A DNA stretch of 64,000 nt, taken from a candidate division TA06 bacterium (GTDB taxonomy: Bacteria > Edwardsbacteria > AC1 > EtOH8). The notes below the pieces were generated by a model. That model was not told the origin of the DNA. It ran no database searches and saw only the letters and a list, made by a program, of their open reading frames with translations. Position 1 is the first letter of the stretch. Every line of letters begins with the position of its first letter. A program made the position numbers and the translations under genes. Below, piece after piece: positions 635 through 49,044 of this stretch. The stretch lies in contig JACRJI010000014.1 of the NCBI GenBank assembly GCA_016235665.1, positions 147,544 through 211,543 on the forward strand. Direction: 5' to 3'.

Positions 635-660
635 CGAAGCAATATAACTGGTTATTTATA

Positions 661-2683: not shown

Positions 2684-2771
2684 TGGTAATCTGGTCAGTA
2701 GTAATAACCCGGAATAAAATATGGAATTTAACCAACGGACTAAAATCCCAAAACGAAAGGAGGTGAACAGT

Positions 2772-3512: not shown

Positions 3513-3541
3513 TGAGGTTTCAATGACAGCGGAGAAGGAAG

Positions 3542-4168: not shown

Positions 4169-4187
4169 GACTTTTCATACCCCAGGC

Positions 4188-4934
4188 ATGGCCATGAGGT
4201 GTGAAGAAGACCGCAGGAATCTGACGGCCAGACAGGAAGTCGTTTTAGGTTTTGACCAGAATGTTATGAAAAGATTGTCCATATTGCAGATTGGAGCAGG
4301 TGGGCTTGGTGGAGAGATATGCCAGGGGTTGGTCCGAAAAGGCGTAGGGACCGTGAAGGTATTTGACGGGGATGTCGTCGAGCCATCAAACCTAACGCGA
4401 CAGAGGTTTTATCCAAAAGACCTTTACAGGAATAAGGCGTTGTCATTGGCTGGCAATCTTATGAAAGAGGCGATCATTAAAACTGAAATTATTGCTTATC
4501 CTTTCATGTTCCAACGGGCATTGGAGGAGGGGATGAATATGGATTGTGATATCGTGATTTGCGCCCCGGACAATGACGAAGTCCGGCGTTTTACGGCGAA
4601 GTATTTTCTCAATAAAGTGCCGGTTATATTTACGGGATTGGACCGGAAGGCAAATACCGGCTATGTTTTCATTCAGGAACCGGGCAAAGCTTGTTTCGAG
4701 TGTGCGATACCGTCTGCAAAAAGGAATAAAAGAGAACCGTGCCCGAATACTCCGGCAGTCATTGACTTGGTCAAGATCATTTCAGGTTTGGTCCTTTTTG
4801 CGGTTGATTCGACGGTAATGCATAGAAAACGAAACTGGAACTACAGACAAATATTCCTCTGCGGGTATATCCCCGAAATTATATGGACGGTTAAAAGAAG
4901 TAATAAATGTCAGATTTGCGGTACCAAATGGTAA
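4188..4934 (+). CDS. E1-like ubiquitin-activating / ThiF-MoeB family adenylyltransferase (minimal, ~249 aa)
   Basis: Rossmann ILQIGAGGLGGEICQGLVRKGVG, then FDGDVVEPSNLTRQ (E1/ThiF signature), CFEC...CQIC zinc pairs; start chosen 20 nt after JAB stop rather than the overlapping ATG 3930. Confidence 0.8.
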   Translation: MAMRCEEDRRNLTARQEVVLGFDQNVMKRLSILQIGAGGLGGEICQGLVRKGVGTVKVFDGDVVEPSNLTRQRFYPKDLYRNKALSLAGNLMKEAIIKTEIIAYPFMFQRALEEGMNMDCDIVICAPDNDEVRRFTAKYFLNKVPVIFTGLDRKANTGYVFIQEPGKACFECAIPSAKRNKREPCPNTPAVIDLVKIISGLVLFAVDSTVMHRKRNWNYRQIFLCGYIPEIIWTVKRSNKCQICGTKW

Positions 4935-5015
4935 CAGACCCCTATCGAATAAGGCGAAGTAAATTAAGGCGAGATCTAAAAACGAAGGGTTTATCGAAGC
5001 CGCAGGCTATAATAT

Positions 5016-5516
5016 ATGAAACCGCCATTAAGACAGGGAAGTGCGAATGACTTTCAGACACCAGCCCAAGCATTGCACCCGTTATACCAATATTTGAAAA
5101 AAGATTGGACAATATGGGAGTGTGCCCAGGGTAAGGGGAATATTGTCAGAGAATTACGGGCACGAGGGTGGAAAGTAATAGGCACAGATATATTAGATGG
5201 TCATGATTATTTATCTTATCTGCCGTCGAGATTCAATTGTATGATTACTAATCCTCCATATAGCATCAAGCAGCTGTTTTTAGAACGTGCATATTCTCTG
5301 CAAAAACCTTTTGCGTTTCTCTTGCCCTTGACCACATTTGAAACGAGAAAGCGACAGTATCTTTTTGAAAAATACGGGTTGGAGGTGATATTTTTCGATA
5401 AACGAATAAATTTTGAAACACCGAGCGGGAGAGGAACGGGAGCCTGGTTTGCGACGGCGTGGTTTACATGGGGTCTGAACATTGGCAAACAAATGACGTT
5501 TTGTAAATATGAATAA
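5016..5516 (+). CDS. small DNA methyltransferase, probably N6-adenine (phage Dam-like), NPPY motif
   Basis: ITNPPYS catalytic motif IV; 166 aa, size typical of phage orphan MTases. Confidence 0.6.
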   Translation: MKPPLRQGSANDFQTPAQALHPLYQYLKKDWTIWECAQGKGNIVRELRARGWKVIGTDILDGHDYLSYLPSRFNCMITNPPYSIKQLFLERAYSLQKPFAFLLPLTTFETRKRQYLFEKYGLEVIFFDKRINFETPSGRGTGAWFATAWFTWGLNIGKQMTFCKYE

Positions 5517-5733
5517 AGTGCGTACAATGGATCAACTAATTGACATAATAACCTTATCAAAACTCTTGAGCGTCAAGCCGATGACCATATATGGTTGGAT
5601 ACACGAGGGTGTAATTCCATATATCAAGCTTGGCCGGCTGGTGCGTTTCAGTGAAAAGGAAGTTCAAGCCTGGCTTAACAAGAAGAAACGAGAGGGACAA
5701 CCAGTAAAAGCAACGGATATAGATTTAACTTAA
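5509..5733 (+). CDS. AlpA/Xis-family helix-turn-helix excisionase-like DNA-binding protein
   Basis: LLSVKPMTIYGWIHEGVIPYIKLGRLVRFSEKEVQAWL matches excisionase/AlpA HTH pattern; immediately upstream of the integrase. Confidence 0.7.
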   Translation: MNKVRTMDQLIDIITLSKLLSVKPMTIYGWIHEGVIPYIKLGRLVRFSEKEVQAWLNKKKREGQPVKATDIDLT

Positions 5734-5802
5734 CTTGACATGGCAATAGGGTATAGGTTAACCCCAAAAGGTAATAATTCATTCATAAAGGAGGGAAGTG
5801 AA

Positions 5803-6861
5803 ATGCGTATATATAAAAGAAATGAGATTTGGTATTTGGACTACAATTATAAAGGCAAGCGATATCGTAAACGCGTCGGTAAATCCCAGAAAATGGCAGA
5901 ACTGGCACTTAAGAACATTGAGGTGAAAATTGTTAAAAAAGAGCATCTCGGCGTACAGGACGACAAAAAGATACTATTCGAGGATTTTACGACAAAATAT
6001 CTCGACTACGCCAAAGTAAACAAGTCCCCTAAATCATATTACCTCAACATAGGTAATATGAAAGCCATGCTGCCGTTTTTCAAAGGGAAATATCTATCCG
6101 AGATCACCCCTCAGGACATCGAGAGATATAAAGCAGAACGATCTTCGACGGTAAAACCAGCTACCCTTAACAGGGATCTTGCCTGCCTGCGGCATATGCT
6201 CAATAAAGCCATCGAGTGGGGATACCAACAGGTGAATCCGATGAAAGGGGTAAAACTCCTGAAGGAGCCTCCGGGGAGGTTGCGTTTCTTGTCCGAGGAG
6301 GAAATCAAAATACTACTGCATGAGTTGCCAGCAGGCTCAAAACTCATCGTACTGGTCGCGATGTACACCGGGATGAGAAGGTCTGAAATCCTCAATCTCA
6401 ATTGGAGCAATGTGGATTTGAAGAACAGGATCCTTGTCGTCGAGAAAACCAAGACCAATGAGCGGAGAATCATCCCTATCAACGATGGTTTGTATTCTCA
6501 GCTACATGAACTGTCCACAAGGAAAAAGAGCGAATTGGTATTTGCCGAATGTAGGATCAATTTACGGAGGAACTTCACAGATGCTTTGAAGAGGGCAAAT
6601 ATCAGAAATTTCAGATTTCACGACCTTCGCCACACCTTCGCGAGCTATCTTGTAATGAGCGGAGCCAGTATCAAAGTGGTCCAGCAGCTTCTCGGCCATA
6701 AGGATTTGAAAATGACGATGAGATATTCGCACCTTTCAAACGAACACCTCCAGGAAGCTGTTGGAAAGTTAAATTACACAAAACAGGATAAGATAGAACC
6801 GCAAACAGTAAGAGAAACCAGGAGCCGATATAAGTACAATCATATTATGTCCCTAAGGTAA
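5803..6861 (+). CDS. int: tyrosine site-specific integrase (phage integrase family)
   Basis: C-terminal HDLRHTFASYLV...LLGHKDLKMTMRYSHL catalytic box; N-terminal arm-type WYLDY..GKRYRKR; RBS AAGGAGGG before ATG 5803. Confidence 0.9.
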   Translation: MRIYKRNEIWYLDYNYKGKRYRKRVGKSQKMAELALKNIEVKIVKKEHLGVQDDKKILFEDFTTKYLDYAKVNKSPKSYYLNIGNMKAMLPFFKGKYLSEITPQDIERYKAERSSTVKPATLNRDLACLRHMLNKAIEWGYQQVNPMKGVKLLKEPPGRLRFLSEEEIKILLHELPAGSKLIVLVAMYTGMRRSEILNLNWSNVDLKNRILVVEKTKTNERRIIPINDGLYSQLHELSTRKKSELVFAECRINLRRNFTDALKRANIRNFRFHDLRHTFASYLVMSGASIKVVQQLLGHKDLKMTMRYSHLSNEHLQEAVGKLNYTKQDKIEPQTVRETRSRYKYNHIMSLR

Positions 6862-9745: not shown

Positions 9746-10102
9746 GGGGGCGACAGGTTTCGACGGTAAAGAAAGGGTTTAAGTGGCATGCCGAGAAAGT
9801 CAGAGGGCTCGTTAAAATACTGGCAACGTCATAATTGACACTTACAACTACGCTCTGGCAGCTTAATTTTAGCTGCCATGCCGCTGCAGGTCCCCGCCTA
9901 TCGGATCTGCAAACGGCATCGCAAAGATGGGCTGGTCCGAGACGCCCGGCCCGGGCATTTCGGATGAGATCTTAGGGCTGCTCTCTTAAGGGATCGTGTT
10001 TGTGCGAGACTTTTAGGGAAAAGACCAAAACACAAAACAAGCATGTAGAGGCTTAGGTTCTTACCTTATCGGACGTGGGTTCAATTCCCACCGCCTCCAC
10101 CA
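9746..10102 (+). ncRNA. ssrA: tmRNA (SsrA), one-piece
   Basis: 5-prime GGGGGCGACAGGTTTCGACGG; 3-prime GGACGTGGGTTCAATTCCCACCGCCTCCACCA; acceptor GGGGGCG/CGCCUCC pairs; tag ORF ending ...AAC TAC GCT CTG GCA GCT TAA (NYALAA*). Confidence 0.9.
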
Positions 10103-10355
10103 TTATTCCTCCGTGCCGGGCAGTAGTCCGCCGAAGCTTTAGCGAAGGCGGGCACCACACCAAAATCCAGAGCTTGGCAATAGCCCCGCCAACGGCGGGG
10201 CACCATCTTGGATCAACAGCCGTTCCGCAACAGCGGGACGGCTGTTATTTGTTTGAGCCTCTTGACAAAATGCTCCGGCAGGATTATCCTATATCAGCGG
10301 GCGGTAGTTCTCAAAGGGTTCCATCAAGGACAAACCATAACTAGGAGGTTCTGCC

Positions 10356-12164: not shown

Positions 12165-12287
12165 GAGAGGTTGCGCCCGGAAAAAATACCGTCCAAAGGA
12201 CCTGCCGAAACAGTTTCCCCCGGGTTGCTGTTTCGGCTTTTCTTTTTGCTTGTAATTAGAGCTTAAATTATATACAATTAAATGCTT

Positions 12288-12655
12288 ATCTAACTTGCTC
12301 AGGAAAAGTAGATAAAATAAACAGGTTTGGTAATAACGTAGATATTGCTCAATTATGTTCTTTTCTTTTTGCCCCGCCAAACAGAAAAGAACCAAAAGAA
12401 AAAGCTCGTCGCTTAAAACTTGTGGTGAGCGGGGTCGAACCACTCTCCGGGCCACGCTTACGCCCTGCCTACGTATAGCTTCGGCGGGCCCGCGCTGCGC
12501 TTCTCGTTGCCGGCGGGCTTGTCTGAACTCGGGTTTTGGCTAAGCCCTCAAACATGCAGACAAGCTTTTTCCGCCATCAACTGCGATGCTCACTGATCGT
12601 GATTCGATAAACTCATCACAAGTTTTTAACGCGACAACCGGGGTTGGCACCGGGT
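12288..12655 (+). repeat. dispersed structured repeat, copy A (MITE-like / ncRNA family)
   Basis: shares >85% identity blocks with five other copies (see findings); TIRs CTCAGGAAA...TTTCCTGAG. Confidence 0.8.
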
Positions 12656-21674: not shown

Positions 21675-21951
21675 TATAAATAGTGGATATGGTAAAACCC
21701 AGATTTAACCAGGTTATGTTCTTTTCTTTTTGTGCCGCTAACAAGAAAAGAACCAAAAGAAAAAGCTCGTCGCAAAGAACCATCCGGGCGCTGCGCTTCT
21801 CGTTGCCGGCGGGCTTGTCTGAACTCGGGATTTTGCCAATCCCTCAAACAGGCCAGACAAGCTTTTAACCGCCGTCAACTCCGATGCTCACTGATGGTTC
21901 TTAACGCGACATACCTTGGTTGGTTGACGGTTGATCATCCTGTTTCCTGAG
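21675..21951 (+). repeat. dispersed structured repeat, copy B
   Basis: shares core with copies A,C-F; stem GGGATT/AATCCC shows compensatory change relative to GGGCT/AGCCC. Confidence 0.8.
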
Positions 21952-30487: not shown

Positions 30488-30766
30488 CGGGAAAACTGGG
30501 GAACAAAAGGCACCAGCCCCGGTATGTCGCGTTAAAACGATCAGTGAGCATCGCAGTTGACGGCGGAAAAAGCTTGTCTGCATGTTTGAGGGCTTGGCCA
30601 AAGCCCGAGTTCAGACAAGCCCGCCAGCAACGAGAAGCGCAGCGCGGGCCCGCTGAAGCTTTAGCGTAAGCGTGGCCCGGAGAGTTTTAAGCGACGAGCT
30701 TTTTTCTTTTTGGTTCTTTTTCTTAGTTGGCGGAACAAAAAAGAAAAAGAACAATAATAAAATTAA
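30488..30766 (-). repeat. dispersed structured repeat, copy C (inverted orientation)
   Basis: reverse complement matches core of copies A,B,D-F. Confidence 0.75.
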
Positions 30767-34173: not shown

Positions 34174-34929
34174 ACTATTAGCCCTACAACGCTCTGCCTA
34201 TGCCAAGGCTTCCTCCTACGCAACTGCTGCGGCGGACATGTTGGCAGACATGCATAGCTTCGCCGGACAAGCAATTGACAATTAGCAGGAACCCCGGAGC
34301 CTGAGATATCAGGTCCGGGGTTTTGTGTTTTTAAATCCAAATGATTATCCCATTCGCTCAGGAATAATTTATGGGATCAATTATTGGACACGGGCTTCGA
34401 TAAGGTTTCGATAAACTCAACCCGGCGCCTCAGCCGAACGATTTACACGGATTTATTGAATATATCTGCGAAAATCGGTAATAATCAGCGTGTATCTGCG
34501 TTCCGGTTGGTTTTTGGTTAGGCTTCCTGAAGGAATGGGATAGTCATTTAACCCGAATAACACATAGGTCCCCCAAAACATAATTCCTAAAATAACTTGA
34601 CATTTATCCTGGTTTGGTAGTATCATACTTTTCAATAAATGTAAAAACAGATTTGTTCACTCGTCATATACACTCTGTATATAAAAATGTTTAACCAAAC
34701 ATTAAACATACAATGTTCTGGCATGCATTTTGCCAGACCAGACCAAAGATCTGAGTCGTTACCGACAGAAAACAATGACCTAAAGTATAAGGTCCCGTCT
34801 TGCTTCGCATCAGGAAGCAGGGCGGGGCTTTTTGTTTAACATTTCATTTTTTACACCTTAGAAAACGAGAAAATATTGATTACTGACATCCTGCGGGGCG
34901 CACACTCCGTTCTGCGCCCCGCAGAGAAG

Positions 34930-35060
34930 ATCATCAATGCCACAGAGAACAACCCGCATGTTACAGAGGCTTTTGTCAATGCCGCATGGACCTTTCCGCA
35001 TACCACAGAAATGATCGTCAATGTCACAGAGAGGAAACCGCATAATGCAGAACAGGCACA
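34930..35060 (+). repeat. three tandem ~42-bp direct repeats (TCAATGYCACAGAGA..AAACCGCAT..) in the ~1-kb leader upstream of the RHS gene
   Basis: seen in sequence; antisense translation shows repeated LCxIDD..CG units. Confidence 0.5.
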
Positions 35061-35217
35061 TATGATGTATCGAAGACACAGTGCTTCTGAAACCGCTTGC
35101 TCTCATTAATCACACGGTCACCCATACCAAAAAGGCAGTTGTGCTGCAGATGGAATTGTTGAAAATATTAACATGGGGAACTAAATAACAAAATCATATA
35201 AAGGAGTAAATTACAAA

Positions 35218-38200
35218 ATGAACAATCATATCAATTTAAATAATAGACATATATATATTCTGATCTTAGTCGGTTTATTAAATTTGCTCTTGCCTTTAAC
35301 AGCTTTTGGCTGGGGGACATATAGTGTTACAGGTTGCGGGAATGTAATTCTATCACCTGGTGATGTTTACCAAGGTGGATCAACTGCTTATGCTAATTCA
35401 TATGAAAGCGATCTGCAAGATTGGTTGGGAGCTACATATGACGGCAGATATTCTTTTGTTGAGCAAACGCCCTATGTCCAGGATTATTTAGGTAATAAAT
35501 TACATTTCAGGAAAGGTGCTTCCGATTCAACAATGGTAGCCTCCAACAATGGCACAGCATACTGTGCTTTTACTGTTTCCCTTGATCCAGACTATTCTGG
35601 CGAAGACGTATCTGTATATCTGTATTTAATGCGGGCTACAACACAAATAGTTTCTGTTGCGAGGTTCTTTATAAAAGGGAAAAAACATCCAAAATGTGAC
35701 ATGGTAGGAAATCCAGTATCTGCCTATTATGGTAACAAACAAATAAATGAGATTGATATCAGCAAAAATGATTTAATGTTAAATCGGCAATATGGACGCA
35801 GAATAATATCTATAACCGATACCGGTAAACCTTGGAACAGACCTTTTGCTGCAACCAATTGGAACCATAATTGGAATAAATACATTTATAAGGCAACAAG
35901 TAATGACACAATAATTTTAATGAATGGTACAGAGGGTGCGAGCAAATTCATTCGGGTTGCCGGGAGCACGAATTATAAATCCGAACGGCAGGGTATGGGC
36001 TACTTAGACAGCATACCCGGTGGCGGGTGGAACTTGAATATATCTGATGGTAGTCGTTACCGGTTTAATATATATGGCAGTTTGGACAGCCTTTTATTAA
36101 AGAATGGTAATTATTATAGGCTTTGGCATACTGCAGATAGCACATATCTGGACAGTATAACAAACATGACGAATGATAGACTGAAATTCCGGTATAATAT
36201 TGCCAATAGATTGGCAAGAGTGTTTTATGATTCGACCCAGAATTTCATTGAGTATAGATATGACAGTACCATTACTGGTTGGTCAATTAGTCAAGTATTG
36301 ATGCATTATAGTCCAAGTGATTCTGTGAAAGTAATCAGCAGGTATTACTATGATGGGTATGTTCCAAATTATGTGGGAGCCGGTAACATATCTGTATATC
36401 AAAAAGGGTATAATTATTCAGATACTATTTATACTAACAATCGTAACAAAGGTGATCGTACAATCTGTTGGTATGATTCAACCTATAGGGGACGCGTTTC
36501 ATACCAGGAGGTAGTACATGGTGACAACGACACCGGCCATGTGGATGACGAAGTGACATACAGGGCATACTTCAAATATTATTTTGGTACTGGCACGACC
36601 GGTTACGACAGCACTAAGGTATACTATTGGGAAGACCAACCATTTACCGGAGCCCATGATCCGGCGGATACCTCTTTCAAACCCAAGGATAGCCTTTCAG
36701 CCTGGACCGATAACGAAAAGTATTTTATCCGAACGCTGATTTTCAACAAGGACGGCACCAAATACAAGGATATGACCTATAGTCCCATTACCGGGATTAC
36801 TGTTACTACAAAAGATACGCTTTATGACAAAGATTACAATCCCGGCTTGGTTATAGGCTCCAACAATGACAGCACTAAATATTATTATTCACACTACCAT
36901 AACCCCGGCGATACCACCACTCGCTACTGGCCCAGCCCCACCAAGATAAAATACCCCAACGGCGACTCCGTTCTCACCTACTTCTCGGCCAAGGGCGACA
37001 GCAACTACCGCCTGCCGGATTCCACCATTGACGAGGCGGGCAAAAGGACCTGCCACTATTACGATGCTTCCAACAATTACGTGGACACGGCCACGGTTTA
37101 CAAAAACAGGGTACTGGCCGACGGCGAGGGCAGCAGCCACGATGTCAGTCAAAGATACCACTATAATAGTAAGGGCAACCTGACCGAAACCCTGGATCTC
37201 CTGGGTCACAAGACCATAATGCATTACACCGATTCCGACACCGGGCAATACCTGATTGAACAAAGAATAGACATGGGGACTGCCGGGGAAGGGAACGAGG
37301 ACATCGTCACCCAATACGGCTACAATCTTACCCAGGGGACTATGGACACCATGACGTTCTACCGGGATTATCCCAACGACCCCAGCCGGACGTTCTATAC
37401 TTATGACGTCAACAAGCGGTTGGTTAAGACTGTATATCCTGATACTTCAGTTGATTCCATGACCTATGACCTGCGGGGCAATCTGCTGGAAAAGATAACC
37501 CAAAAGTCGTACACTCTGCTTTACAAGGCCATATACGAGTATGACCCGCACGATCATCTAACCAAGCTTAAGGAATACAAGGATCCTCAGAACTCGCCGA
37601 ACGATTACGATTCCACCGTGTATACTTACAACCTGCACGACAGGTTGATCTCCCAAACCAACGCCTTGGGGCAGACCACATATTATAACTACTGCATGGA
37701 CCGGTTAGTGAAAACCACCTACCCCGATGATACCTACGACAGCCTGGGTTATTGGGCCGGGGGCGATCTTAAGTTCAAATTAGACCGCAAAGGGCAGGTG
37801 ACGTATTACCAGTACGATGGCTATAACGGCGGTTGCGGGTGCATGTCTTCCAGCCGTTCCAGATTGGCTAAGAAGTATTATTATGATAGCTTGGACCAAT
37901 ACCAAAACGGTTTTGCCTATCCTTCGGATTCCGTGATCTACGATTACGACCAGGTTGGCAACCGCACAAAAATGGTTGACAAAAACGGGACTACGATGTA
38001 TTCTTATGACGATATGAACCGGCTGTGGAGCGACTCCTGCGGCTACCTGAACACCAAGAACCGGTACCAGTATGATATGGCTGGCAACCGGACGAAACTG
38101 AATGTTTACCAGGGCAATGATACCACCGTCTGCTACCTGGATCAAAACTACGACAATTACGATGCGGCCAATAGGGTGGGCCTGACAATTGCCTCGGGCG

Positions 38201-39603
38201 ACACTTTTGATCTTAGTTACTGGGACACCGGCACGCCCAAGGAGGTGCAATACCCCAACGGGGCCAAAGAGGTTTACGGGCTAAATGTTCGTGGACAGCT
38301 TGACTCCATAGCCACCACGTTAGGCGATACCTTGACCTGGTTCAAACACAGCTACGGGTACAACGGCCTGGGGGACAGGGAATGGCAATACATTTACCAA
38401 ACCCGGCCGGAGGTGTCCACATTATCCGATACCTTTAAATATGGCTACGACGGATTGCGGCGGCTGACTACTGCCATATACCCGCCCAGCACCAACAGCG
38501 GTGATACTGTAACCTACGTTTACGACGCTGTGGGAAATAGGCTGGAGAAACAGAGCATGGTCAATGGAACCACTACTTATACCATTGACAACTTGACCAA
38601 CCGTATGGCCCAGGCAAATAACATTTATTTTACTTATGACAGCAGCGGCAACTGGACCCGTAAGGCGCACGATACCGACGAAGGATTAGTGACGGACATC
38701 ATTTTCACGTATGATCATGAGAACCGGCTGGTAGACGCCCGTGGCCCCGGCTATAATCCATACTATATGACCACGTATTACAATGGCGATGGTGTTAGAT
38801 TAGCCAAGAGCACCAATGCTGACGCCGAAAAGCGGTATGCGTATGACGGCATGAACACGGTAGTGGAGCAGGATGCCAGCGGTTACTTAAGGTACAAGTA
38901 TGTTTATGTCAACGGAATGCTGTTGTCCCGCATTGACGGTAGTGATAATAAGTATTATTACCACAGAGACGGGTTGGGTTCAATAATTGGCGTAAGTAAT
39001 AGCACACCTGAAATTACCACTGCGCAATTGTTTGATGAGTTTGGCAATTGGCTGTACTTTGACAGTGATTGGGACTATTATGGCTATACGGGCCAGGAGT
39101 ACGACTGGACGCTGATGGATGCGGTGAACCTAAGGGCCAGGGAGTATTACCCGGAATATGGCAGGTTCATGCAGGAGGATCCGATAGGGGACCAAGGGGG
39201 ATTAAATTGGTATGGTTATACCGGGAACAATCCGGTAAATTACATTGATCCGAAGGGATTAGAAGGTTCATATGGTGGATGGATGTTAATTTGGCCACCT
39301 ACTTTAAGGTATGGCATTGGCGGTGGTATTATGTATTACTATTATCAGCAAATGATTAAAATGAATTGGAAAGGAGCTGATGCATATTTTCATTGTCTCG
39401 GATCTTGTGAAGCAGCTAAATGGGCAGGACCCTATACAAGCTTATACTGGGGTGTTTTCAGAGAACTAACCGATGAAATACGTGGAAAAGGTTGGTCTGG
39501 TGAAGATATTAAAAGTAATATACAAGGTATCAATTGTCCATTAAGCCAGACATGTAAGGAAAAATGTAAACCGCTGGTACCTAAAGGCATGCCACTAGAT
39601 TAA
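35218..39603 (+). CDS. RHS/YD-repeat polymorphic toxin, 1461 aa, with C-terminal toxin tip after DPxGL
   Basis: signal peptide; dozens of YD repeats (YDxxGN/R); RHS core end EDPIGDQGGLNWYGYTGNNPVNYIDPKGL followed by ~115-aa AT-rich Cys-containing tip. Confidence 0.9.
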   Translation: MNNHINLNNRHIYILILVGLLNLLLPLTAFGWGTYSVTGCGNVILSPGDVYQGGSTAYANSYESDLQDWLGATYDGRYSFVEQTPYVQDYLGNKLHFRKGASDSTMVASNNGTAYCAFTVSLDPDYSGEDVSVYLYLMRATTQIVSVARFFIKGKKHPKCDMVGNPVSAYYGNKQINEIDISKNDLMLNRQYGRRIISITDTGKPWNRPFAATNWNHNWNKYIYKATSNDTIILMNGTEGASKFIRVAGSTNYKSERQGMGYLDSIPGGGWNLNISDGSRYRFNIYGSLDSLLLKNGNYYRLWHTADSTYLDSITNMTNDRLKFRYNIANRLARVFYDSTQNFIEYRYDSTITGWSISQVLMHYSPSDSVKVISRYYYDGYVPNYVGAGNISVYQKGYNYSDTIYTNNRNKGDRTICWYDSTYRGRVSYQEVVHGDNDTGHVDDEVTYRAYFKYYFGTGTTGYDSTKVYYWEDQPFTGAHDPADTSFKPKDSLSAWTDNEKYFIRTLIFNKDGTKYKDMTYSPITGITVTTKDTLYDKDYNPGLVIGSNNDSTKYYYSHYHNPGDTTTRYWPSPTKIKYPNGDSVLTYFSAKGDSNYRLPDSTIDEAGKRTCHYYDASNNYVDTATVYKNRVLADGEGSSHDVSQRYHYNSKGNLTETLDLLGHKTIMHYTDSDTGQYLIEQRIDMGTAGEGNEDIVTQYGYNLTQGTMDTMTFYRDYPNDPSRTFYTYDVNKRLVKTVYPDTSVDSMTYDLRGNLLEKITQKSYTLLYKAIYEYDPHDHLTKLKEYKDPQNSPNDYDSTVYTYNLHDRLISQTNALGQTTYYNYCMDRLVKTTYPDDTYDSLGYWAGGDLKFKLDRKGQVTYYQYDGYNGGCGCMSSSRSRLAKKYYYDSLDQYQNGFAYPSDSVIYDYDQVGNRTKMVDKNGTTMYSYDDMNRLWSDSCGYLNTKNRYQYDMAGNRTKLNVYQGNDTTVCYLDQNYDNYDAANRVGLTIASGDTFDLSYWDTGTPKEVQYPNGAKEVYGLNVRGQLDSIATTLGDTLTWFKHSYGYNGLGDREWQYIYQTRPEVSTLSDTFKYGYDGLRRLTTAIYPPSTNSGDTVTYVYDAVGNRLEKQSMVNGTTTYTIDNLTNRMAQANNIYFTYDSSGNWTRKAHDTDEGLVTDIIFTYDHENRLVDARGPGYNPYYMTTYYNGDGVRLAKSTNADAEKRYAYDGMNTVVEQDASGYLRYKYVYVNGMLLSRIDGSDNKYYYHRDGLGSIIGVSNSTPEITTAQLFDEFGNWLYFDSDWDYYGYTGQEYDWTLMDAVNLRAREYYPEYGRFMQEDPIGDQGGLNWYGYTGNNPVNYIDPKGLEGSYGGWMLIWPPTLRYGIGGGIMYYYYQQMIKMNWKGADAYFHCLGSCEAAKWAGPYTSLYWGVFRELTDEIRGKGWSGEDIKSNIQGINCPLSQTCKEKCKPLVPKGMPLD

Positions 39604-39615
39604 GAAAGGTTTAAA

Positions 39616-40047
39616 ATGAAGATATTAAAAATTACATTTTTAACGGTTGTTTTAACGATCACCGCTTTCATCATCATTAGGCAACCTTGGCAAAAAAATG
39701 TAATGGTTTTATCTCAACCATTACTTCAAAACAATCAAACAATTGAATTATGGGAAAAACCATATCATAATATCTTTAGCATGGAGTATACAACATGGTT
39801 TGTATTTAATAATAACGGAAATAGGACTTGGCATTTGATTGATGACAAATATATTTCCTTTGGCACAGTTTCGTTATTCGTATCAAACAACAACGATACA
39901 ATTAGAGTTGAAACAACTGGAGCAGCTACACCTCTTCATTTAATTGCACAGTATAGTTTATCTGATAAAAATTTTGTTGCAAGAAGTGAAGAAACTGTTA
40001 GTAATAAAGCAGGATGGAAATTGCTTAGATCATTAAAAATAAGATAA
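39616..40047 (+). CDS. putative cognate immunity protein (TM/secreted, 143 aa)
   Basis: immediately downstream of toxin tip; AT-rich like the tip; followed by hairpin CTGCCCCGCC-TAAT-GGCGGGGCAG. Confidence 0.5.
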   Translation: MKILKITFLTVVLTITAFIIIRQPWQKNVMVLSQPLLQNNQTIELWEKPYHNIFSMEYTTWFVFNNNGNRTWHLIDDKYISFGTVSLFVSNNNDTIRVETTGAATPLHLIAQYSLSDKNFVARSEETVSNKAGWKLLRSLKIR

Positions 40048-40100
40048 ATAGATGTCTCAACTGCCCCGCCTAATGGCGGGGCAGTGATGGTACTGCTGAA

Positions 40101-41366
40101 AAACCCTACAACGACCTGGGCGACCGCACCAGTCAGTATGTGTACATGACCAGACCCGGCACCACCGCGCTCTCCGGCACGATAAATTACACCTACGATG
40201 GCTTGCGGCGGCTTACTACTGCCATATATCCGCCCAGCACCAACAGCGGGGATACTATAACCTACACCTACGATGCCATGAGCAACCGGACGGCTAAAAC
40301 AAGCGTAAACAACGGAACCACGCCGTATGCCGTTGACGACACTACCAACCGGATGTCCCAGGCTGGGAATTACTATTTTGACTATGACAGCTGCGGAAAC
40401 TGGACCCGCAAGTGGCATACAACAGACGAAGGTTCGGTAGTTGATATTTATTTTAGTTACGACTACGAGAACCGTCTGACGGACGCCCGGGGGCCTGGAG
40501 GCGATCCGTATTACATGACGAACACGTATAACGGAGACGGAGTTAGACTATCTAAGGCCACCAACGCCGACCTCGAGAAGCGTTATGTGTATGACGGCAT
40601 GAACACCGTGGTGGAGCAGGATGCCAGTGGTTACTTAAGGTACAAATATGTTTACGTGAACGGAATGCTGTTATCGCGTATAGATGCCAGCGATAATAAG
40701 AGCTACTACCACCATGATGGTTTGGGGTCAATTATTGGCGTAAGCAACAGCGCACCGGAAATACTCACAGCTCAATTGTTTGATGAGTTCGGCAACTGGC
40801 TGTATTTTGATAGTGATTGGGATTATTACGGCTACACGGGCCAGGAGTATGATTGGACGCTGATGGATGCGGTGAACCTTAGGGCAAGAGAATACTATCC
40901 TGAGTACGGCAGGTTTATGCAGGAGGACCCGATAGGCAATAGGGGCGGGAGCTTGAATTGGTATTTGTATGTGGCAAATAATCCGATTAATGCTGTTGAT
41001 TTACATGGCTTATATATTATTGACAACAGTTATGATAAGTATTTGAGACAGAAGTTATTGACGACGCAGGGTATAGCATTAATGAGGGCAACAATAACTG
41101 CTAATCCTTGTTGTGTCGGTGGACAAAATAATGTAGATAAAATATTGGCTGCATTACATAATAGTATTTTTATATACAATGATGTTGAATCAACATATCG
41201 GGCTTCATGTCAATATAATAATATCACTTTCACAAGAGAAACATTTGACTCTAGGTCTGGTATTGTTGCTTCATCGGTATTGCACGAACTTACCCATATG
41301 GCGTTTCGTGTTTCATCGGAATATTTACCCAAGAAATATGAAGCAGATTGTTTCGGGTATAAATAA
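40101..41366 (+). CDS. orphan RHS C-terminal cassette (no canonical start) ending in a different toxin tip with HELTH motif
   Basis: in-frame homology to parent gene begins right after the 40058-40082 hairpin (YNDLGDR..YTYDGLRRLTTAIYPPSTNSGDT); DPIGNRGGSLNWYLYVANNPINAVDLHGL then novel tip with HELTHM. Confidence 0.7.
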   Translation, partial: KPYNDLGDRTSQYVYMTRPGTTALSGTINYTYDGLRRLTTAIYPPSTNSGDTITYTYDAMSNRTAKTSVNNGTTPYAVDDTTNRMSQAGNYYFDYDSCGNWTRKWHTTDEGSVVDIYFSYDYENRLTDARGPGGDPYYMTNTYNGDGVRLSKATNADLEKRYVYDGMNTVVEQDASGYLRYKYVYVNGMLLSRIDASDNKSYYHHDGLGSIIGVSNSAPEILTAQLFDEFGNWLYFDSDWDYYGYTGQEYDWTLMDAVNLRAREYYPEYGRFMQEDPIGNRGGSLNWYLYVANNPINAVDLHGLYIIDNSYDKYLRQKLLTTQGIALMRATITANPCCVGGQNNVDKILAALHNSIFIYNDVESTYRASCQYNNITFTRETFDSRSGIVASSVLHELTHMAFRVSSEYLPKKYEADCFGYK

Positions 41367-41386
41367 TTAATTGAAAGGGAAAGAAA

Positions 41387-41890
41387 ATGCATAAAAATAT
41401 TCTAATAGCGATAGTGGCAATATTGTTATCTTGCACAAAATATGGTATATCAAGTAATGATAAAAATATTATTTACGGTTTAGTTATAAGTGATCAAAAA
41501 AGTATTCATGCACAAGAGATGCCTACGTTTAATATAAAAAAAATATATGTTAATATTCTCGGCTGTGACCCAAACAATGAATTGGTTGAATATTTAAAGC
41601 AAAATAATGCGATTGATATAGTGCCTGCATCGAAGAGCATTAATGTTTACCACGACCCAGTGAAGTTTGATTATTATAAAAACCCAATTTCAGTGAGGAG
41701 TAAAAGCAATAACGAAAATGGCATTATATTTGAGATAAAAAGTATTAAAAAGGAACCTAAAACAGGGATAATAACTGTTAACTTATTCTATTATGCGGGG
41801 CCTTTATTCGCGGGTAATTATGAGTATTTAATAGATAAAAACGATAAAGAATGGTATATTGTAAAAAGAAGCATTGGCGAAATATCATAA
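41387..41890 (+). CDS. putative immunity lipoprotein for orphan cassette 1
   Basis: signal/lipobox-like N-terminus; AT-rich; followed by perfect palindrome CCAGACCCGCCCTTAAGGGGCGGGTCTGG. Confidence 0.45.
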   Translation: MHKNILIAIVAILLSCTKYGISSNDKNIIYGLVISDQKSIHAQEMPTFNIKKIYVNILGCDPNNELVEYLKQNNAIDIVPASKSINVYHDPVKFDYYKNPISVRSKSNNENGIIFEIKSIKKEPKTGIITVNLFYYAGPLFAGNYEYLIDKNDKEWYIVKRSIGEIS

Positions 41891-41938
41891 TGATGTGAAC
41901 CAGACCCGCCCTTAAGGGGCGGGTCTGGTTCTTACAGC

Positions 41939-42739
41939 TGGGACGGGGTAAGATTATCCAAGGCCACAAATGCTGACGCCGAAAAGCGGTATGCGTATGA
42001 CGGCATGAACACGGTGGTGGAGCAGGATGCCAGCGGTTACTTGAGATACAAATATGTTTATGTGAACGGAATGCTCTTGTCCCGCATTGATGGTAGTGAT
42101 AATAAGTATTATTACCACAGAGACGGGTTGGGTTCAATAATTGGCGTAAGTAATGGCACACCTGAAATTACCACTGCTCAACTGTTTGATGAGTTTGGCA
42201 ACTGGCTGTATTTTGACAGTGATTGGGACTATTACGGCTACACCGGCCAGGAGTACGACTGGCCGTTGATGGATGCGGTGAACCTTAGGGCAAGAGAGTA
42301 TTACCCGGAGTATGGAAGGTTCATGCAGGAGGACCCGATAGGAAATGCAGGTGGTTCACTTAACTGGTATTTGTATGTGGCAAATAATCCGATTAACTGG
42401 ACGGACCCCACTGGGAAGATCGTGTACAAATGTGTCAGTGGTGCACATGTCTACATTAAAATATCTGGCAATAAATATAATAATGCATGGGGTTTCTATC
42501 CAGTTGGTGCACCTTTGTCGGGCATAGCTTCTGGTTTGTTAAACGAATGGGTGCCAAGCTATGTTAAGGTATTTGAAACAGGAGGCAACTGCAAAGCTGT
42601 GACCTCAGATGATTGTAACGATCAAGCAGTTTACAACGCAATTCACACTTTAGCAAGAGCTCAATTACCATATCATTTGATTTATTTTAACTGCATTCAT
42701 TGGACAGATACCGCCTTAAGTATAGGTGGCGTTAAATAA
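41939..42739 (+). CDS. orphan RHS C-terminal cassette 2 (no canonical start) with third distinct toxin tip
   Basis: DGVRLSKATNADAEKRYAYDGMNTVVEQ... in-frame homology to parent residues; EDPIGNAGGSLNWYLYVANNPINWTDPTGK then novel tip. Confidence 0.7.
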   Translation, partial: WDGVRLSKATNADAEKRYAYDGMNTVVEQDASGYLRYKYVYVNGMLLSRIDGSDNKYYYHRDGLGSIIGVSNGTPEITTAQLFDEFGNWLYFDSDWDYYGYTGQEYDWPLMDAVNLRAREYYPEYGRFMQEDPIGNAGGSLNWYLYVANNPINWTDPTGKIVYKCVSGAHVYIKISGNKYNNAWGFYPVGAPLSGIASGLLNEWVPSYVKVFETGGNCKAVTSDDCNDQAVYNAIHTLARAQLPYHLIYFNCIHWTDTALSIGGVK

Positions 42740-42747
42740 AAAGGAGA

Positions 42748-43173
42748 ATGAAAATGTTGATCAACCTTAAAGCACTATCTCTTGTCGAAAAAATAGTTGG
42801 TGCTATTGCTATTATTGTTAGCGGCTATTATATCCTTCATGGGTCCTCTGCTTGGATTCTTTTACATTTGACCTCTAACATACAAGGATTTTTCCCCAAA
42901 ATGACATTCGTGGTAGAGACTATCGTCAATTTTTATTTAATACCACTTTTAATTTTAGTTACTGGTCTTTTTTATGTGAATGGGAAAATTAATATATTAG
43001 CTATGTGGATTTCGATTATACTTTGTCTGTCAATCGTATTTATGATAGTTGTACAGCATGGCAATATCAAACCATATTTGCTTATGCTTGTAATTAATGG
43101 TTTGTTCTTAATTCTTTATATTGTTCATAAACAAGTAGAGTCAAAGAAAAAAGAATCTGCCTGTTGTGTATAA
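42748..43173 (+). CDS. putative immunity membrane protein for orphan cassette 2
   Basis: four hydrophobic helices; AT-rich; followed by hairpin AGCCCCGCC-GATT-GGCGGGGCT. Confidence 0.45.
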   Translation: MKMLINLKALSLVEKIVGAIAIIVSGYYILHGSSAWILLHLTSNIQGFFPKMTFVVETIVNFYLIPLLILVTGLFYVNGKINILAMWISIILCLSIVFMIVVQHGNIKPYLLMLVINGLFLILYIVHKQVESKKKESACCV

Positions 43174-43269
43174 TGCACAATAAGATTTTCCACGACGAAG
43201 CCCCGCCGATTGGCGGGGCTTTTACGTTTGGTGGTATTTAGGCCCGGCTGTTCTTGTCCGCCGTAGTTT

Positions 43270-43542
43270 TCACGTAGGTGGAAGCCGGGCTGTTCTTTTT
43301 ACGAGAGCGTCCAGGTAGTGCAGTAAAGCCTTTTTGTCGCCCTTGGGCAACTCTTCGGCCTTACGCAAGCGGCGCCAGAGCGCGGCCTGCTGGGGGTCTC
43401 TTTTATCTTTAACGGCCTTGATGCCCAGAAGCTCTTCAACAGAAACCTTGAGGGCCTTGGCCAGCGGCTCCAACAGGTGGGCCGGCGGATGTTTGGTTTC
43501 TATCTCGTAGTAGGCGATAACACCAAATATATTGCTTGACAC
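43270..43542 (-). CDS. HTH-domain fragment protein (GTG start)
   Basis: HLLEPLAKALKVSVEELLG resembles helix 3 onward of XRE-type HTH; N-terminal part of a typical HTH missing. Confidence 0.3.
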   Translation of the reverse strand: MSSNIFGVIAYYEIETKHPPAHLLEPLAKALKVSVEELLGIKAVKDKRDPQQAALWRRLRKAEELPKGDKKALLHYLDALVKRTARLPPT

Positions 43543-43690
43543 TGAAATATTGAAATGCTAAACTAATAAGCAGTTAAAAAACAATGCTGGAAATAGTAAT
43601 TCTGGATCAGAGTACACTGAACCAACAACAGAAGTAAAAATGATCGACAAAAAAGAGATCCGGCGGTAGTACAAAGAGACCATCCAGCCC

Positions 43691-43996
43691 ATGGGGGTCT
43701 ACCAGATAACCAACCTGGCCAACGGCAAGATATTCCTGGAAAGCAGCAAGAACCTCAACGCCATATTCAACCGCAGCCTGTTCCAGCTCCGGGGCGGACT
43801 CCATGTGAGCGAGGGCCTGCAGAAGGATTTCAAGCAATACGGCGAATCAAATTTTGCCTTTGAGGTCGTGGACCGGCTGGAGCCTAAGGAAGGCCTGGGT
43901 TATGATTACAGCCGCGACCTGAAGGCCCTGGAGGAGATCTGGCTGGAGAAGCTTCAACCCTATGGCGACAAGGGTTACAATGACAAAAAAGCGTAA
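43691..43996 (+). CDS. small GIY-YIG nuclease-domain protein (YhbQ-like)
   Basis: GVYQITNLANGKIFLESSKNLNAIFNR...H matches GIY-(10-11)-YIG with conserved Arg. Confidence 0.6.
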   Translation: MGVYQITNLANGKIFLESSKNLNAIFNRSLFQLRGGLHVSEGLQKDFKQYGESNFAFEVVDRLEPKEGLGYDYSRDLKALEEIWLEKLQPYGDKGYNDKKA

Positions 43997-44013
43997 ACTT
44001 GGCCAAATGCCTG

Positions 44014-44396
44014 TCTAACTTGTTTAGGAAAAGTAGAAAGAATTTAGCAGGTTTGGTGATAACGCAGATATTAACTCAAAAATGTTCTTTTCTTTTTGTA
44101 TCGCCAACAAGAAAAGAACCAAAAGAAAAAGCTCGTCGCTTAAAACTCTCCGGGCCACGCTTACGCCCTGCCTACGTATAGCTTCGGCGGGCAAGCAGGG
44201 CTTCAGCGGGCCCGCGCTGCGCTTCTCGTTGCTGACGGGCTTGTCTGAACTCGGGCTTTGGCCCAGCCCTCAAACATGCAGACAAGCTTTTTCCGCCATC
44301 AACTGCGATGCTCACTGATCGTGATTCGATAAACTCATCACAAGTTTTTAACGCGACAACCGTGGTTGGGGCCGGTTGTCCTCTATGTTTCCTGAG
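44014..44396 (+). repeat. dispersed structured repeat, copy D
   Basis: TIRs CTTGTTTAGGAAA.../...TTTCCTGAG; carries extra insertion GGGCAAGCAGGGCTTCAGC. Confidence 0.8.
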
Positions 44397-44441
44397 ATGA
44401 TGGGGTAAGCATTCTTTACCAAAACGCAAACGAAGTACAAT

Positions 44442-45401
44442 ATGAAAAAAAGCATTCTTTTATCTTTGGCCCTGCTGTCACTGTTGGCTGTACCGGTATC
44501 AGCCGCCGCCCCGCCGGAGGGGCCGGATTCGGTCTACGTGGGGATGTATGTCAACCGGGTGTACGACGTCTCCCTGCGGGACAACAGATTCACGGCCGAC
44601 TTCTACCTGTGGTTCCGCTGGAAGAACCAGGACCTGGATCCCGTCAAGAGCTTCGAGATCGTGGGCGGCGAGAAGACCTTCCAGTCCGAGCCCTACCGGT
44701 CCAAGAACGGCGATGTCAACTACGCCTTCAGCCGGGTGACGGCGGTGATGACCCAGCACTGGGATGTCTCCGCCTTTCCCTTTGACGATCACGTCCTGAC
44801 CGTACAGATAGAGGACGGGGAGAGCGAGACCGGATCCCTGGTCTATGTCCTGGACGCCGGAAACCTGGGCAAGAGCCCGGATATTAAAATACCCGGCTGG
44901 GCTTTGGACAAGTTCTATTTCGGGGTGGTGCCCTATACCTATGCCACCAATTACGGAGATCCCACCCTGCCCCCGGAAAATCAATCAATATTTTCCAGAT
45001 TTTACTGCTCGGTCCGGGTGGTCAGGGCGGGAGTGGGATATTTCATAAAACTATTCATAGCGGTATTCCTTTCGGCCCTGATTGCCTTCATGAGCTTTTT
45101 CATATCCCCGACAGACCTGCAATCCCGCACCGGACTGGGGGTGGGCGCCATCTTTGCCGCGGTCGGCAGCCAATATGTCATCGCCTCGTCGCTGCCCGAC
45201 AGCAACATCATGACCATGGCCGACCAGTTGCACATTGCGGCTTTCCTCTTCATATTCTTGTCCATACTAGTGGCTGTCATTTCCCTGAACCTGTATAACC
45301 GAGGAAAAAAAGAGTCCTCGGCCAAACTGGACCGTTTTTGCCAGAAGGCCTTTCCCATTGCCTACGGCACCATCACTCTGCTGATAATTCTTTTCCGCTA
45401 A
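44442..45401 (+). CDS. prokaryotic pentameric ligand-gated ion channel (Cys-loop receptor family) homolog
   Basis: signal peptide; extracellular beta-sandwich pattern VYVGMYVNRVYDVSLRDNRFTADFYLWFRWKNQDL; four C-terminal TM helices; 319 aa, the size of prokaryotic members such as GLIC. Confidence 0.6.
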   Translation: MKKSILLSLALLSLLAVPVSAAAPPEGPDSVYVGMYVNRVYDVSLRDNRFTADFYLWFRWKNQDLDPVKSFEIVGGEKTFQSEPYRSKNGDVNYAFSRVTAVMTQHWDVSAFPFDDHVLTVQIEDGESETGSLVYVLDAGNLGKSPDIKIPGWALDKFYFGVVPYTYATNYGDPTLPPENQSIFSRFYCSVRVVRAGVGYFIKLFIAVFLSALIAFMSFFISPTDLQSRTGLGVGAIFAAVGSQYVIASSLPDSNIMTMADQLHIAAFLFIFLSILVAVISLNLYNRGKKESSAKLDRFCQKAFPIAYGTITLLIILFR

Positions 45402-45471
45402 GATCTGCCGCCGCCAGCCGGCCATTGAAATATGCGGTTTCCTGGGGTATAATGGTTCAAAAGAAAATGCC

Positions 45472-45773
45472 TATCTAACTTGATCAGGAAAAGTAGAAAG
45501 AATACAGTGGATATGGTAAAAACGCAGGTTTTGCCCGGTTATGTTCTTTTCTTTTTGTACCGCCCAAAAGCAAAGAACCAAAAGAAAAAGCTCGTCGCTT
45601 AAAACTCTCCTGGCGTTGCGCTTCTCGTAGCCGGCGGGCTTGTCTGAACTCGGGCTTTGGCCCAGCCCTCAAACAGGCCAGACAAGCTTTTAACCGCCGT
45701 CAACTGCGATGCTCACTGATCGTTTTAACGCGACAACCGGGGTTGGCACCTATTGTCTACATGTTTCCTGAGC
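45472..45773 (+). repeat. dispersed structured repeat, copy E
   Basis: TIRs ATCAGGAAA.../...TTTCCTGAG. Confidence 0.8.
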
Positions 45774-45833
45774 TGATTAGATAATCATTCAAAAGAATAG
45801 TGCCTCACAAAAATCAACAGTCATGGAGAGACG

Positions 45834-48523: not shown

Positions 48524-48857
48524 ATCTAACTTGCTCAGGAAAAGTAGAAAGAATGTAGTGGATACGTTATAAACGGAGATTTAACCAGGCTATGTTCTTT
48601 TCTTTTTGTGCCGCCAACTAGAAAAGAACCAAAAGAAAAAGCTCGTCGCAAAGAACCATCCGGGCCACGCTTACGCTAAAGCTTCAGCGGGCCCGCGCTG
48701 CGCTTCTCGTTGCCCGCGGGCTTGTCTGAACTCGGGCTTCTGCCAAGCCCTCAAACAGACCAGACAAGCTTTTAACCGCCGGCAACTGTGATGCTCACTG
48801 ATGGTTCTTAACGCGACAACCGGGGTTGGGCACCGGTTGATCATGCTGTTTCCTATG
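48524..48857 (+). repeat. dispersed structured repeat, copy F
   Basis: TIRs CTCAGGAAA.../...GTTTCCTATG; stem variant GGGCTT/AAGCCC. Confidence 0.8.
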
Positions 48858-49044
48858 CTAATCGGATAGGCAGTAAAAATAGCACTAGGGGGTCTGCCCA
48901 CGAACTTCTCAGTAACAAAAAGACAGTCTCAGCATTATTGCTGAGACTGTCTTTTTCATAGAAGAATTATTTTTAGAAATCCACGAAAAAAAGTTTCCTG
49001 TCCTTCATGGTTTCCTTATAGTTTAAGGTATGGTAAGCAACCGG

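Follow-up and report, generated by a model that had tools for sequence, protein, structure and literature searches.

Rhs loci with orphan rhs-CT/rhsI modules, which go by the terms 'silent cassettes' and C-terminal displacement, were reportedly described by Jackson et al. in 2009 and by Koskiniemi et al. in 2014. In such loci, found in Enterobacteriaceae and others, core fragments that have no start codon stand downstream of a complete rhs gene, and each of them carries a tip and an immunity gene of its own; the tip modules are AT-rich, and the core sequences form direct repeats by which tips can be switched. The tips are demarcated by a PxxxxDPxGL motif, and arrays of Rhs orphan modules are characteristic of polymorphic toxins that act between bacteria (Poole et al., 2011; PMC3150448). 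In this work we analyzed a stretch of 64,000 nucleotides (nt) from the metagenome-assembled genome of a candidate division TA06 bacterium (contig JACRJI010000014.1, of 213,772 bp, in assembly GCA_016235665.1, positions 147,544 to 211,543; hereafter the window), in which an RHS locus shares these features. We consider it very likely that this locus is a horizontally acquired RHS polymorphic-toxin island, which would encode an exported main toxin and two displaced tip/immunity cassettes, all of them for envelope-acting toxins. It differs from the described loci in its uncultivated TA06 host, in the plain Sec signal and N-terminal domain of its toxin, which has no PAAR or VgrG linkage, in the membrane association of all three immunity candidates, and in the GC hairpin that ends each module. 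The proteins of the window correspond to the NCBI entries MBI5806316-27 by exact look-up.

A second described group that bears on the locus is the lipocone superfamily, which was defined by Burroughs et al. (eLife, 2025; PMC12419801) and in which prok-SAA is among the families recruited as polymorphic-toxin tips. The chemistry predicted there is that of a lipid head-group phosphoesterase; its template is TelC, an enzyme that acts outside the cytoplasm to cleave lipid II and the one lipocone toxin that has been characterised (PMC12419801). In the same work prok-SAA tips with immunity proteins, facing the periplasm, are described as bacterial conflict systems, and its supplementary tables place RHS upstream of Imm-SAA in 17 loci; the combination of RHS and prok-SAA is already catalogued there. 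The prok-SAA family has also been treated by Zamocky and Ferianc (2023), as cited in PMC12419801. The features of the TA06 locus, with positions in the window, are the following:

34329..43524, strand not given: RHS island of about 9.2 kb, directly after the pspC terminator, with an empty site in the related genome L027
35218..39603, + strand: full-length RHS/YD-repeat toxin gene of 1461 amino acids (aa), an open reading frame (ORF) with matches to PF05593 and TIGR03696
39232..39261, + strand: PxxxxDPxGL motif, PVNYIDPKGL, at the core end; tip demarcation and predicted autoproteolysis site, read from the translation
39262..39600, + strand: tip 0, prok-SAA (lipocone, SAA-Wnt clade) domain of 113 aa with 6 Cys, 65.9 bits to a hidden Markov model (HMM)
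39391-39393, + strand: catalytic-position His44 of tip 0, by alignment to the prok-SAA profile
39616..40047, + strand: imm0, candidate immunity protein, ORF of 143 aa with a transmembrane (TM) segment at aa 1-24
40060..40085, + strand: GC hairpin 1, 11-bp stem ACTGCCCCGCC / GGCGGGGCAGT, loop TAAT, -27.1 kcal/mol, z -4.7
40074..41366, + strand: open frame of orphan cassette 1, a start-less core stub (TIGR03696, 57.4 bits) and tip 1
41013-41363, + strand: tip 1, 117 aa, in orphan 1 after PINAVDLHGL
41283-41297, + strand: HELTH motif, aa 91-95 of tip 1, read from the translation
41387..41890, + strand: imm1, candidate immunity protein, ORF of 167 aa, predicted lipoprotein with a signal peptide and lipobox LLSC
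41894..42739, + strand: open frame of orphan cassette 2, a start-less core stub (TIGR03696, 63.7 bits) and tip 2
41897..41931, + strand: GC hairpin 2, 15-bp perfect stem, 5-nt loop, -34.1 kcal/mol, z -6.2
42416-42736, + strand: tip 2, 107 aa, in orphan 2, with His11 at 42446-42448 and Cys93 at 42692-42694
42748..43173, + strand: imm2, candidate immunity protein of 141 aa, polytopic (about 4 TM segments by prediction)
43200..43219, + strand: GC hairpin 3, GCCCCGCC GATT GGCGGGGC followed by TTTT, -28.5 kcal/mol, z -5.1, array terminator
43270..43542, - strand: N-terminally truncated remnant of an Xre-family helix-turn-helix gene, 43% identical to the C-terminal half of the Xre protein of L024

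The anatomy of the full-length gene can be read directly. A predicted Sec-type signal peptide (aa ~1-31, with a hydrophobic segment at aa 10-34) is followed by an N-terminal domain reaching to aa ~460, the YD-repeat shell, the core domain and tip 0. The RHS repeats are matched by Pfam PF05593 (E 4e-13), the RHS-associated core domain TIGR03696 lies at aa 1275-1348 (60.7 bits), and the solved Rhs shell of PDB 8h8a matches aa 925-1347 (E 4.5e-19). The N-terminal domain has no match in Pfam or PDB (zero in each) and is 24-27% identical to the N-terminal domains of RHS genes in three of the retrieved loci (L003, L005, L009). G+C content along the locus is about 0.37 in the 5' part of the RHS gene, about 0.50 in the core and 0.30-0.39 in each tip/immunity pair. 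The closest RHS gene, in L003/L004, is 78% identical over the query core and has the same overall architecture; its tip is of the Tlde1 type (E 4.5e-12), and a polytopic membrane protein is encoded downstream. The tips of other RHS relatives are peptidase M23 (E 2e-22) or weakly PLA2-like.

An earlier reading of this DNA, made from the sequence only, had proposed one full-length RHS gene with a DPxGL-type core end and an AT-rich tip, followed by two displaced C-terminal toxin/immunity cassettes whose cores begin without a start codon and end in unrelated tips. This is borne out in each of its parts, by the ORFs, by TIGR03696 matches in all three copies and by independent contigs across the junctions (see below). 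Both orphan frames are open from right after stop codons, with no start codon where the homology begins, and both stubs are homologous to the 3' portion of the main core before they diverge into mutually unrelated tips. The stub of orphan 1 (~40101-41012, homology beginning at ~40101-40107) comprises 304 aa and ends PINAVDLHGL; that of orphan 2 (41933-42415, homology beginning at 41933) comprises 159 aa and ends PINWTDPTGK. The 250-360 aa of core first proposed for the cassettes is too long for orphan 2. An ORF of 141-167 aa begins 9-21 nt downstream of each of the three tips (113, 117 and 107 aa).

The core copies form three direct repeats of 300 nt with a similarity far beyond chance. Over the last 402 nt of the core, nucleotide identity is 82.8% between the main gene and orphan 1, 92.3% between the main gene and orphan 2, and 84.6% between the two orphans, and the amino acid identity between copies is 93-97%; in the 420 nt upstream, orphan 1 is 66.9% identical to the main gene in nucleotides and 69% in amino acids. 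The copies had been called near-identical, which overstates an identity to the main gene of 67-92% at the nucleotide level. The differences are mostly synonymous (synonymous to nonsynonymous codon differences of 51:9, 26:4 and 46:9), from which it follows that the stubs are fragments of distinct, once-functional rhs genes and not local duplicates that decayed in situ. It should be noted that repeated core segments of 83-92% identity in a metagenome-assembled genome could also invite an assembly artefact, with strain variants of one rhs 3' end stitched in series. Independent Logan assemblies of run SRR12113407 are 100% identical to the window over 38971-40890 and 40961-41998; each of these two contigs extends from one cassette across an immunity gene of unique sequence and a hairpin to the following stub, so that both inter-cassette junctions are spanned and the array is not a stitching artefact. 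Since, in addition, the two stubs differ in the core position at which they begin and are joined directly to unique sequence, we regard an artefact as highly improbable.

Each module ends in a GC hairpin, and none of 200 shuffles folds as well as these sequences. Within the window there are 3 occurrences of the motif CCCGCC-N3-6-GGCGGG, where 0.06 would be expected. That hairpins bound the cassettes had been noticed before, with coordinates that are off by a few bases; the hairpins themselves are real (z -4.7 to -6.2). Neither internal hairpin has a T-tract, and in both cases the next stub follows within 0-20 nt: hairpin 1 lies 15-20 nt upstream of the stub of orphan 1, and hairpin 2 directly abuts that of orphan 2. 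This placement at every module 3' end, with the internal two abutting the next stub and lacking the T-tract of terminal hairpins, and the presence of the same GCCCCGCC...GGCGGGGC stem 3' of the immunity genes of L024, L012 and L001, whose tips are unrelated, could be taken to mean that the hairpins are attC-like recombination sites from which units are excised as circles and inserted site-specifically. However, the same stem also stands 3' of the tmRNA gene (10183-10201), which marks it as a terminator of a general type, with no specificity for cassettes. The GC stems are perfect and have no GTTRRRY-type R or L core sites; neither the island nor its immediate neighbourhood has an integron integrase, the only integrase of the window being 28 kb away beside the tmRNA gene. 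A homologous single crossover or loop-out between core repeats would, moreover, account for the hairpin and stub junctions without any site-specific enzyme. Recombination at attC-like sites is for these reasons very unlikely. The stem is best read as the usual intrinsic-terminator stem of this lineage, carried at the 3' end of each module, and the internal junctions have the form expected after a loop-out or a single crossover at the core repeats.

The tip and immunity ORFs are intact despite a G+C content of 30-33%. For the 117 codons of tip 1 and the 167 codons of imm1, at about 31% G+C, we estimate a probability of about 1e-4 that the frames would be open by chance, which suggests that this module was displaced recently or is maintained. 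A rival reading is that the orphan cassettes are expressed as small, independent toxin/antitoxin-like modules from internal starts (GTG at 40140, ATG at 42005), as has been reported for Salmonella orphan rhs (PMC7043789). The ORFs that begin at these codons have 408 and 244 aa, the 244-aa product of orphan 2 is annotated by NCBI (a singleton cluster among about 15 billion proteins), and in L024 a tip 2-like domain stands behind a 15-aa stub with a GTG start of its own. The immunity candidates, however, face the periplasm or lie in the membrane and the tips are rich in cysteine, which makes them unfit for an intracellular toxin/antitoxin role, and the internally started products would have no signal peptide. 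A promoter scan was uninformative in this AT-rich DNA, with 49 matches against 26 expected and none that stands out. We therefore hold independent expression from internal starts to be unlikely, and read the two cassettes as displaced 3' ends of rhs genes.

All three tips had first been proposed as possibly new toxin families, to be tested by profile and structure searches of the tips and immunity proteins; these searches placed tip 0 in a known family and left tip 1 without relatives and tip 2 with two, neither of them matching a family. For tip 0, a local prok-SAA HMM was built from 47 domain sequences in the source data of PMC12419801, and the tip matches it with 65.9 bits (E 1.6e-22, searched as a single sequence), the alignment covering HMM positions 7-101 of 102. 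Among 500 shuffled versions of tip 0 the highest score was 4.1 bits, and the scores of tips 1 and 2 are negative. Pfam SAA matches with E 5e-6, which is sub-threshold (27.3 bits vs 30.8), and eight serum amyloid A chains in PDB match, the best being SAA3 (E 5.7e-5). The closest member of the family is MBP7826453.1 (36% identity, E 4e-19). Tip 0 aligns over the whole domain with the family pattern (DxYFHC His, RE..D, eD..N..G, C..C, PKG), showing the His of YFHC in H2, RE..DE in H3, eD..SNxxG in H4, paired cysteines and a terminal PKG. A word-indexed homologue search with tip 0 was empty because of the sensitivity of the index; the local profile later matched strongly. By its profile match, then, tip 0 belongs to the known prok-SAA family, and its use at the C-terminal end of an RHS toxin, next to a membrane-anchored immunity partner, is an architecture already listed in PMC12419801.

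Tip 0 differs from the described members in being at most 36% identical to those listed, in a host (TA06) outside the listed phyletic range, and in its partner. The protein imm0, an N-terminal TM anchor with a domain of about 115 aa and no cysteines, has no Pfam or NCBIfam family and is a singleton cluster among about 15 billion proteins; it is neither an Imm-SAA with its 4 conserved Cys nor an Imm-BamE-type lipoprotein. The mechanistic template for tip 0 would be the TelC/TipC pair of Streptococcus intermedius, with which it shares the lipocone superfamily, a predicted extracytoplasmic action and an immunity protein facing the membrane or periplasm. TelC, a lipid II phosphatase toxin, by contrast belongs to the ClaspCone-CapCone-TelC clade and is delivered by a type VII secretion system (T7SS) as an LXG protein, whereas tip 0 belongs to the SAA-Wnt clade and is carried on an RHS protein.

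Tip 1 contains the HELTH motif that had been pointed out from the sequence. Neither Pfam nor NCBIfam has a match for it, the best PDB match is peptide deformylase at E 1.4, and a word-indexed homologue search was empty. An exhaustive phmmer search of 1.84 billion representative proteins likewise gave no matches at E <= 0.001; it should be noted that this search returned no self-match either, the start-less orphan apparently not being a called protein in the collection. No relatives were found in viral contigs or in the 29 loci compared. On these searches tip 1 is an ORFan rather than a demonstrable new family. Toxin tips of the Tox-MPTase type were reportedly described in polymorphic toxins by Zhang et al. 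in 2012. With these and with minimal zincin/gluzincin metallopeptidases tip 1 has in common a similar small size, an HExxH motif in a predicted helix after two beta-strands, and acidic residues 8-17 residues downstream; it differs from them in that it matches no zincin or Tox-MPTase profile and that no homologue was found. The resemblance consists in the HELTH motif. Its partner imm1 is a singleton cluster among about 15 billion proteins, with a hydrophobic segment at aa 4-23 and Cys16 read from the sequence, and the lipobox LLSC predicts a lipoprotein facing the periplasm.

Tip 2 belongs to a family of three sequences, the others being P0046 (on L001) and a protein of L024. A word-indexed search found P0046 as the single database homologue (77% identity); on its contig, what remains of tip 2 is truncated at the 5' end and is accompanied by a homologue of imm2 (60% identity) and by the same hairpin. 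The L024 relative is 34% identical (E 6e-12) and is followed, at the position of imm2, by a non-homologous polytopic membrane protein of 139 aa. The His and Cys/His pattern that had been read in this tip is present and conserved in its homologues, together with a GF.P segment and ETGG: FNCxHW is invariant in 3 of 3 sequences, and His11 is kept in L024, the L001 copy being truncated upstream of it. An N-terminal His before a C-terminal Cys, both conserved, is the order of the PPPDE (Peptidase_C97) and LRAT/H-REV107 permuted papain-fold enzymes, with which tip 2 also shares the placing of the His on a predicted beta-strand and of NCxH(W/F) at a helix start; the polytopic membrane immunity protein would suit a lipid-directed enzyme. 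None of the comparisons with PPPDE or LRAT reached significance (Pfam C97 at E 0.12; hhalign probability 1%), and in hhalign alignments to PLA2G16 and to the H/C tip of L025 the Cys motif was in register, again not significantly. The family profile gave nothing meaningful against PDB sequences, and a scan of viral contigs with the tip 2 family found no relatives.

The predicted topology of the immunity candidates (a TM anchor in imm0, a lipobox in imm1, multiple TM segments in imm2), the cysteine-rich tips and the envelope-directed tips of the relatives together support envelope-directed toxins, and all three toxins most likely act in the envelope of the target cell. Whether this cell is bacterial has also to be considered, for a Sec signal, an RHS shell and a toxic tip at the C-terminus, in a protein without type VI secretion system (T6SS) markers, might suit an anti-eukaryotic or insecticidal Tc-type (TcB/TcC-like) toxin. 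Profile scans found no TcA/TcB or SpvB-like domains. Each tip is linked to a small membrane protein, as is typical of immunity, orphan arrays are the hallmark of interbacterial polymorphic toxins (PMC3150448), and prok-SAA tips with immunity proteins belong to bacterial conflict systems (PMC12419801). A Tc-type toxin is in our judgement hardly credible here.

For the interbacterial toxin island we propose the following course of events. The main gene product would be a Sec-exported YD-repeat shell from which the tip is released at PxxxxDPxGL to intoxicate neighbouring cells, and the small gene 3' of each tip would encode the cognate immunity protein. Modules consisting of a core fragment, a tip, an immunity gene and a terminator hairpin may recombine into the 3' part of the gene via core homology; incoming modules would thereby have pushed two earlier tip/immunity pairs downstream, where they persist as start-less orphans. 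The orphans would keep the cell immune, and recombination across the direct repeats of the core could link them to the main gene again. That the arrangement is a classical substrate for tip switching, as had been suggested from the start, is supported at the level of architecture. For tip 0, with the TM-anchored imm0 as its partner, the predicted activity is cleavage of the phosphate-linked head groups from carrier or membrane lipids, in the manner of TelC on lipid II; tip 1 could be a minimal HExxH metallopeptidase with a lipoprotein as its immunity protein, and tip 2 is a candidate His/Cys (NCxHW) hydrolase with a polytopic membrane immunity protein.

Several points weigh against this interpretation or parts of it. 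No secretion partner (T6SS VgrG/PAAR, T7SS or similar) is fused to the toxin or lies within the 64-kb window; a Sec-type signal peptide is all that the protein itself carries for export. The orphan cores end in DLHGL (orphan 1) and DPTGK (orphan 2) instead of DPxGL. In the H4 motif of tip 0, SNIQGI, the Arg of sNxxGR is replaced by Ile, and imm0, with one TM segment and no Cys, is not the 4-Cys Imm-SAA reported with prok-SAA. The possible fit of tip 1 to a minimal zincin is drawn from its motif, and its AlphaFold2 prediction, made with no alignment, had a mean confidence (pLDDT) of 39 and was unusable. The hydrolase assignment of tip 2 likewise comes from short motifs; its AlphaFold2 model was of low confidence (pLDDT 55.5), with Foldseek matches at E >= 2.3.

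The borders of the island were defined by comparison with related genomes, L027 and L028, which were the two relatives returned by a genome-collection scan with the left-flank gene. In L027 (UBA5202) synteny with the window is continuous except that only about 9 bp separate the counterparts of 34327 and 43525, which is an empty site after the pspC terminator; in L028 the same site holds a gene for a gingipain-like C25 peptidase of 1312 aa with a type IX secretion system (T9SS) C-terminal sorting domain (L028 11824-15762). The empty site and the different cargo identify the RHS locus as a 9.2-kb island in a variable hot spot. G+C content is 0.55-0.68 in the flanks against 0.30-0.53 inside the island, and by its borders and composition we read the RHS island as horizontally acquired. 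Given the L028 peptidase, the insertion site is a hot spot for genes of secreted proteins, and the lineage has T9SS cargo. In the left leader of the island (0.9 kb, 34329-35217) a search for integrase remnants or any homology found none. At the right edge, the border cuts the Xre gene, of which only the C-terminal 90 aa are left; its full-length counterpart in L024 has 161 aa (HTH_3, E 8e-11) and stands 3' of the tip 2-like cassette. A 32-nt inverted repeat on either side of the island (34207-34238 / 43255-43286, 78% complementary) was considered as the end of an element and rejected, its left arm being conserved in the empty-site genome. A PADLOC scan gave zero defence-system matches among the locus proteins; only the neighbouring Xre remnant (capH-like) and a GIY-YIG gene were matched. 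This homing-endonuclease-like GIY-YIG gene, which adjoins the island (43640-43996), has an in-frame TAG at codon 10 (43667-43669), and a 101-aa ORF from 43691 remains vs 118 aa in relatives.

Modules made up of a stub, a tip, a membrane protein and a GCCCCGCC hairpin stand alone in L024, L012 and L001. In L024 (Ga0315286_10026510, 25-5802) a 15-aa RHS stub with its own GTG start is followed by the tip 2-like domain, a 4-TM protein, the hairpin and Xre; the module is flanked by a tyrosine integrase and a DnaG-type primase/AAA protein, the Xre and primase/AAA genes being divergent, which suggests that the toxin cassette is cargo of an integrative element. In L012 (1554-2590) an RHS stub of about 100 aa, a PLA2-like tip, a TM protein and a GCCCCGCC hairpin lie directly after rpoA-rplQ, with no full-length rhs upstream. 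Directly before the tip, a DNA 'handle' of about 40 nt (TGGTATTTGTATGTGGCAAATAATCCGATTAAC...), encoding ...YVANNPIN(W)TDP..., is nearly identical in orphans 1 and 2, L012 and L024, and handle-bearing cassettes from other metagenomes carry unrelated tips. It is plausible that this sequence acts as a homology handle for exchange. A more far-reaching view, which we consider possible while doubting it, is that tips 1 and 2 found two new families of envelope toxins, and that units of stub, tip, immunity gene and hairpin are mobile cassettes of integrase/Xre/primase elements such as that in L024. The truncated Xre gene would on this view be the remnant of such an element, and circular intermediates would enter a resident rhs gene by single crossover at the handle.

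Other observations concern the surroundings of the island. To its right, a gene of 319 aa (44442-45401), conserved in related metagenome-assembled genomes, has weak matches to pentameric ligand-gated ion channels (E 0.005-0.007, below the cut-off), both in the ligand-binding and in the membrane domain. A family of intergenic repeats of about 370-400 bp, 75-89% identical, has at least 6 copies in the window (12280-12653, 21716-21898, 30537-30753 on the - strand, 44005-44424, 45465-45790 and 48525-48872) and further copies in L028 (7782-8050 and 11675-11752); it has no Rfam match and could be an element like a miniature inverted-repeat transposable element or a structured RNA. Just upstream of the tmRNA gene lie a tyrosine integrase and a HerA-like ATPase (661-2358, 5740-6861, 9746-10102), a group that probably belongs to another integrated element, with the tmRNA gene as its classical attachment site.

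On the reading of a horizontally acquired toxin island, the locus adds candidate division TA06, an uncultivated phylum, to the range of the classical Rhs orphan-cassette arrangement, and leaves the understanding of Rhs systems unchanged. Tip 0 and imm0 provide a natural RHS-borne prok-SAA domain with a new, Cys-free candidate immunity protein, which could be used to probe the predicted activity of the bacterial relatives of SAA. Tips 1 and 2 add two compact candidate toxin/immunity pairs that have no family assignment and for which the topology of the immunity proteins predicts an action at the periplasm or membrane. The value of the locus lies in this material for toxin discovery and in the study of how such cassettes spread.

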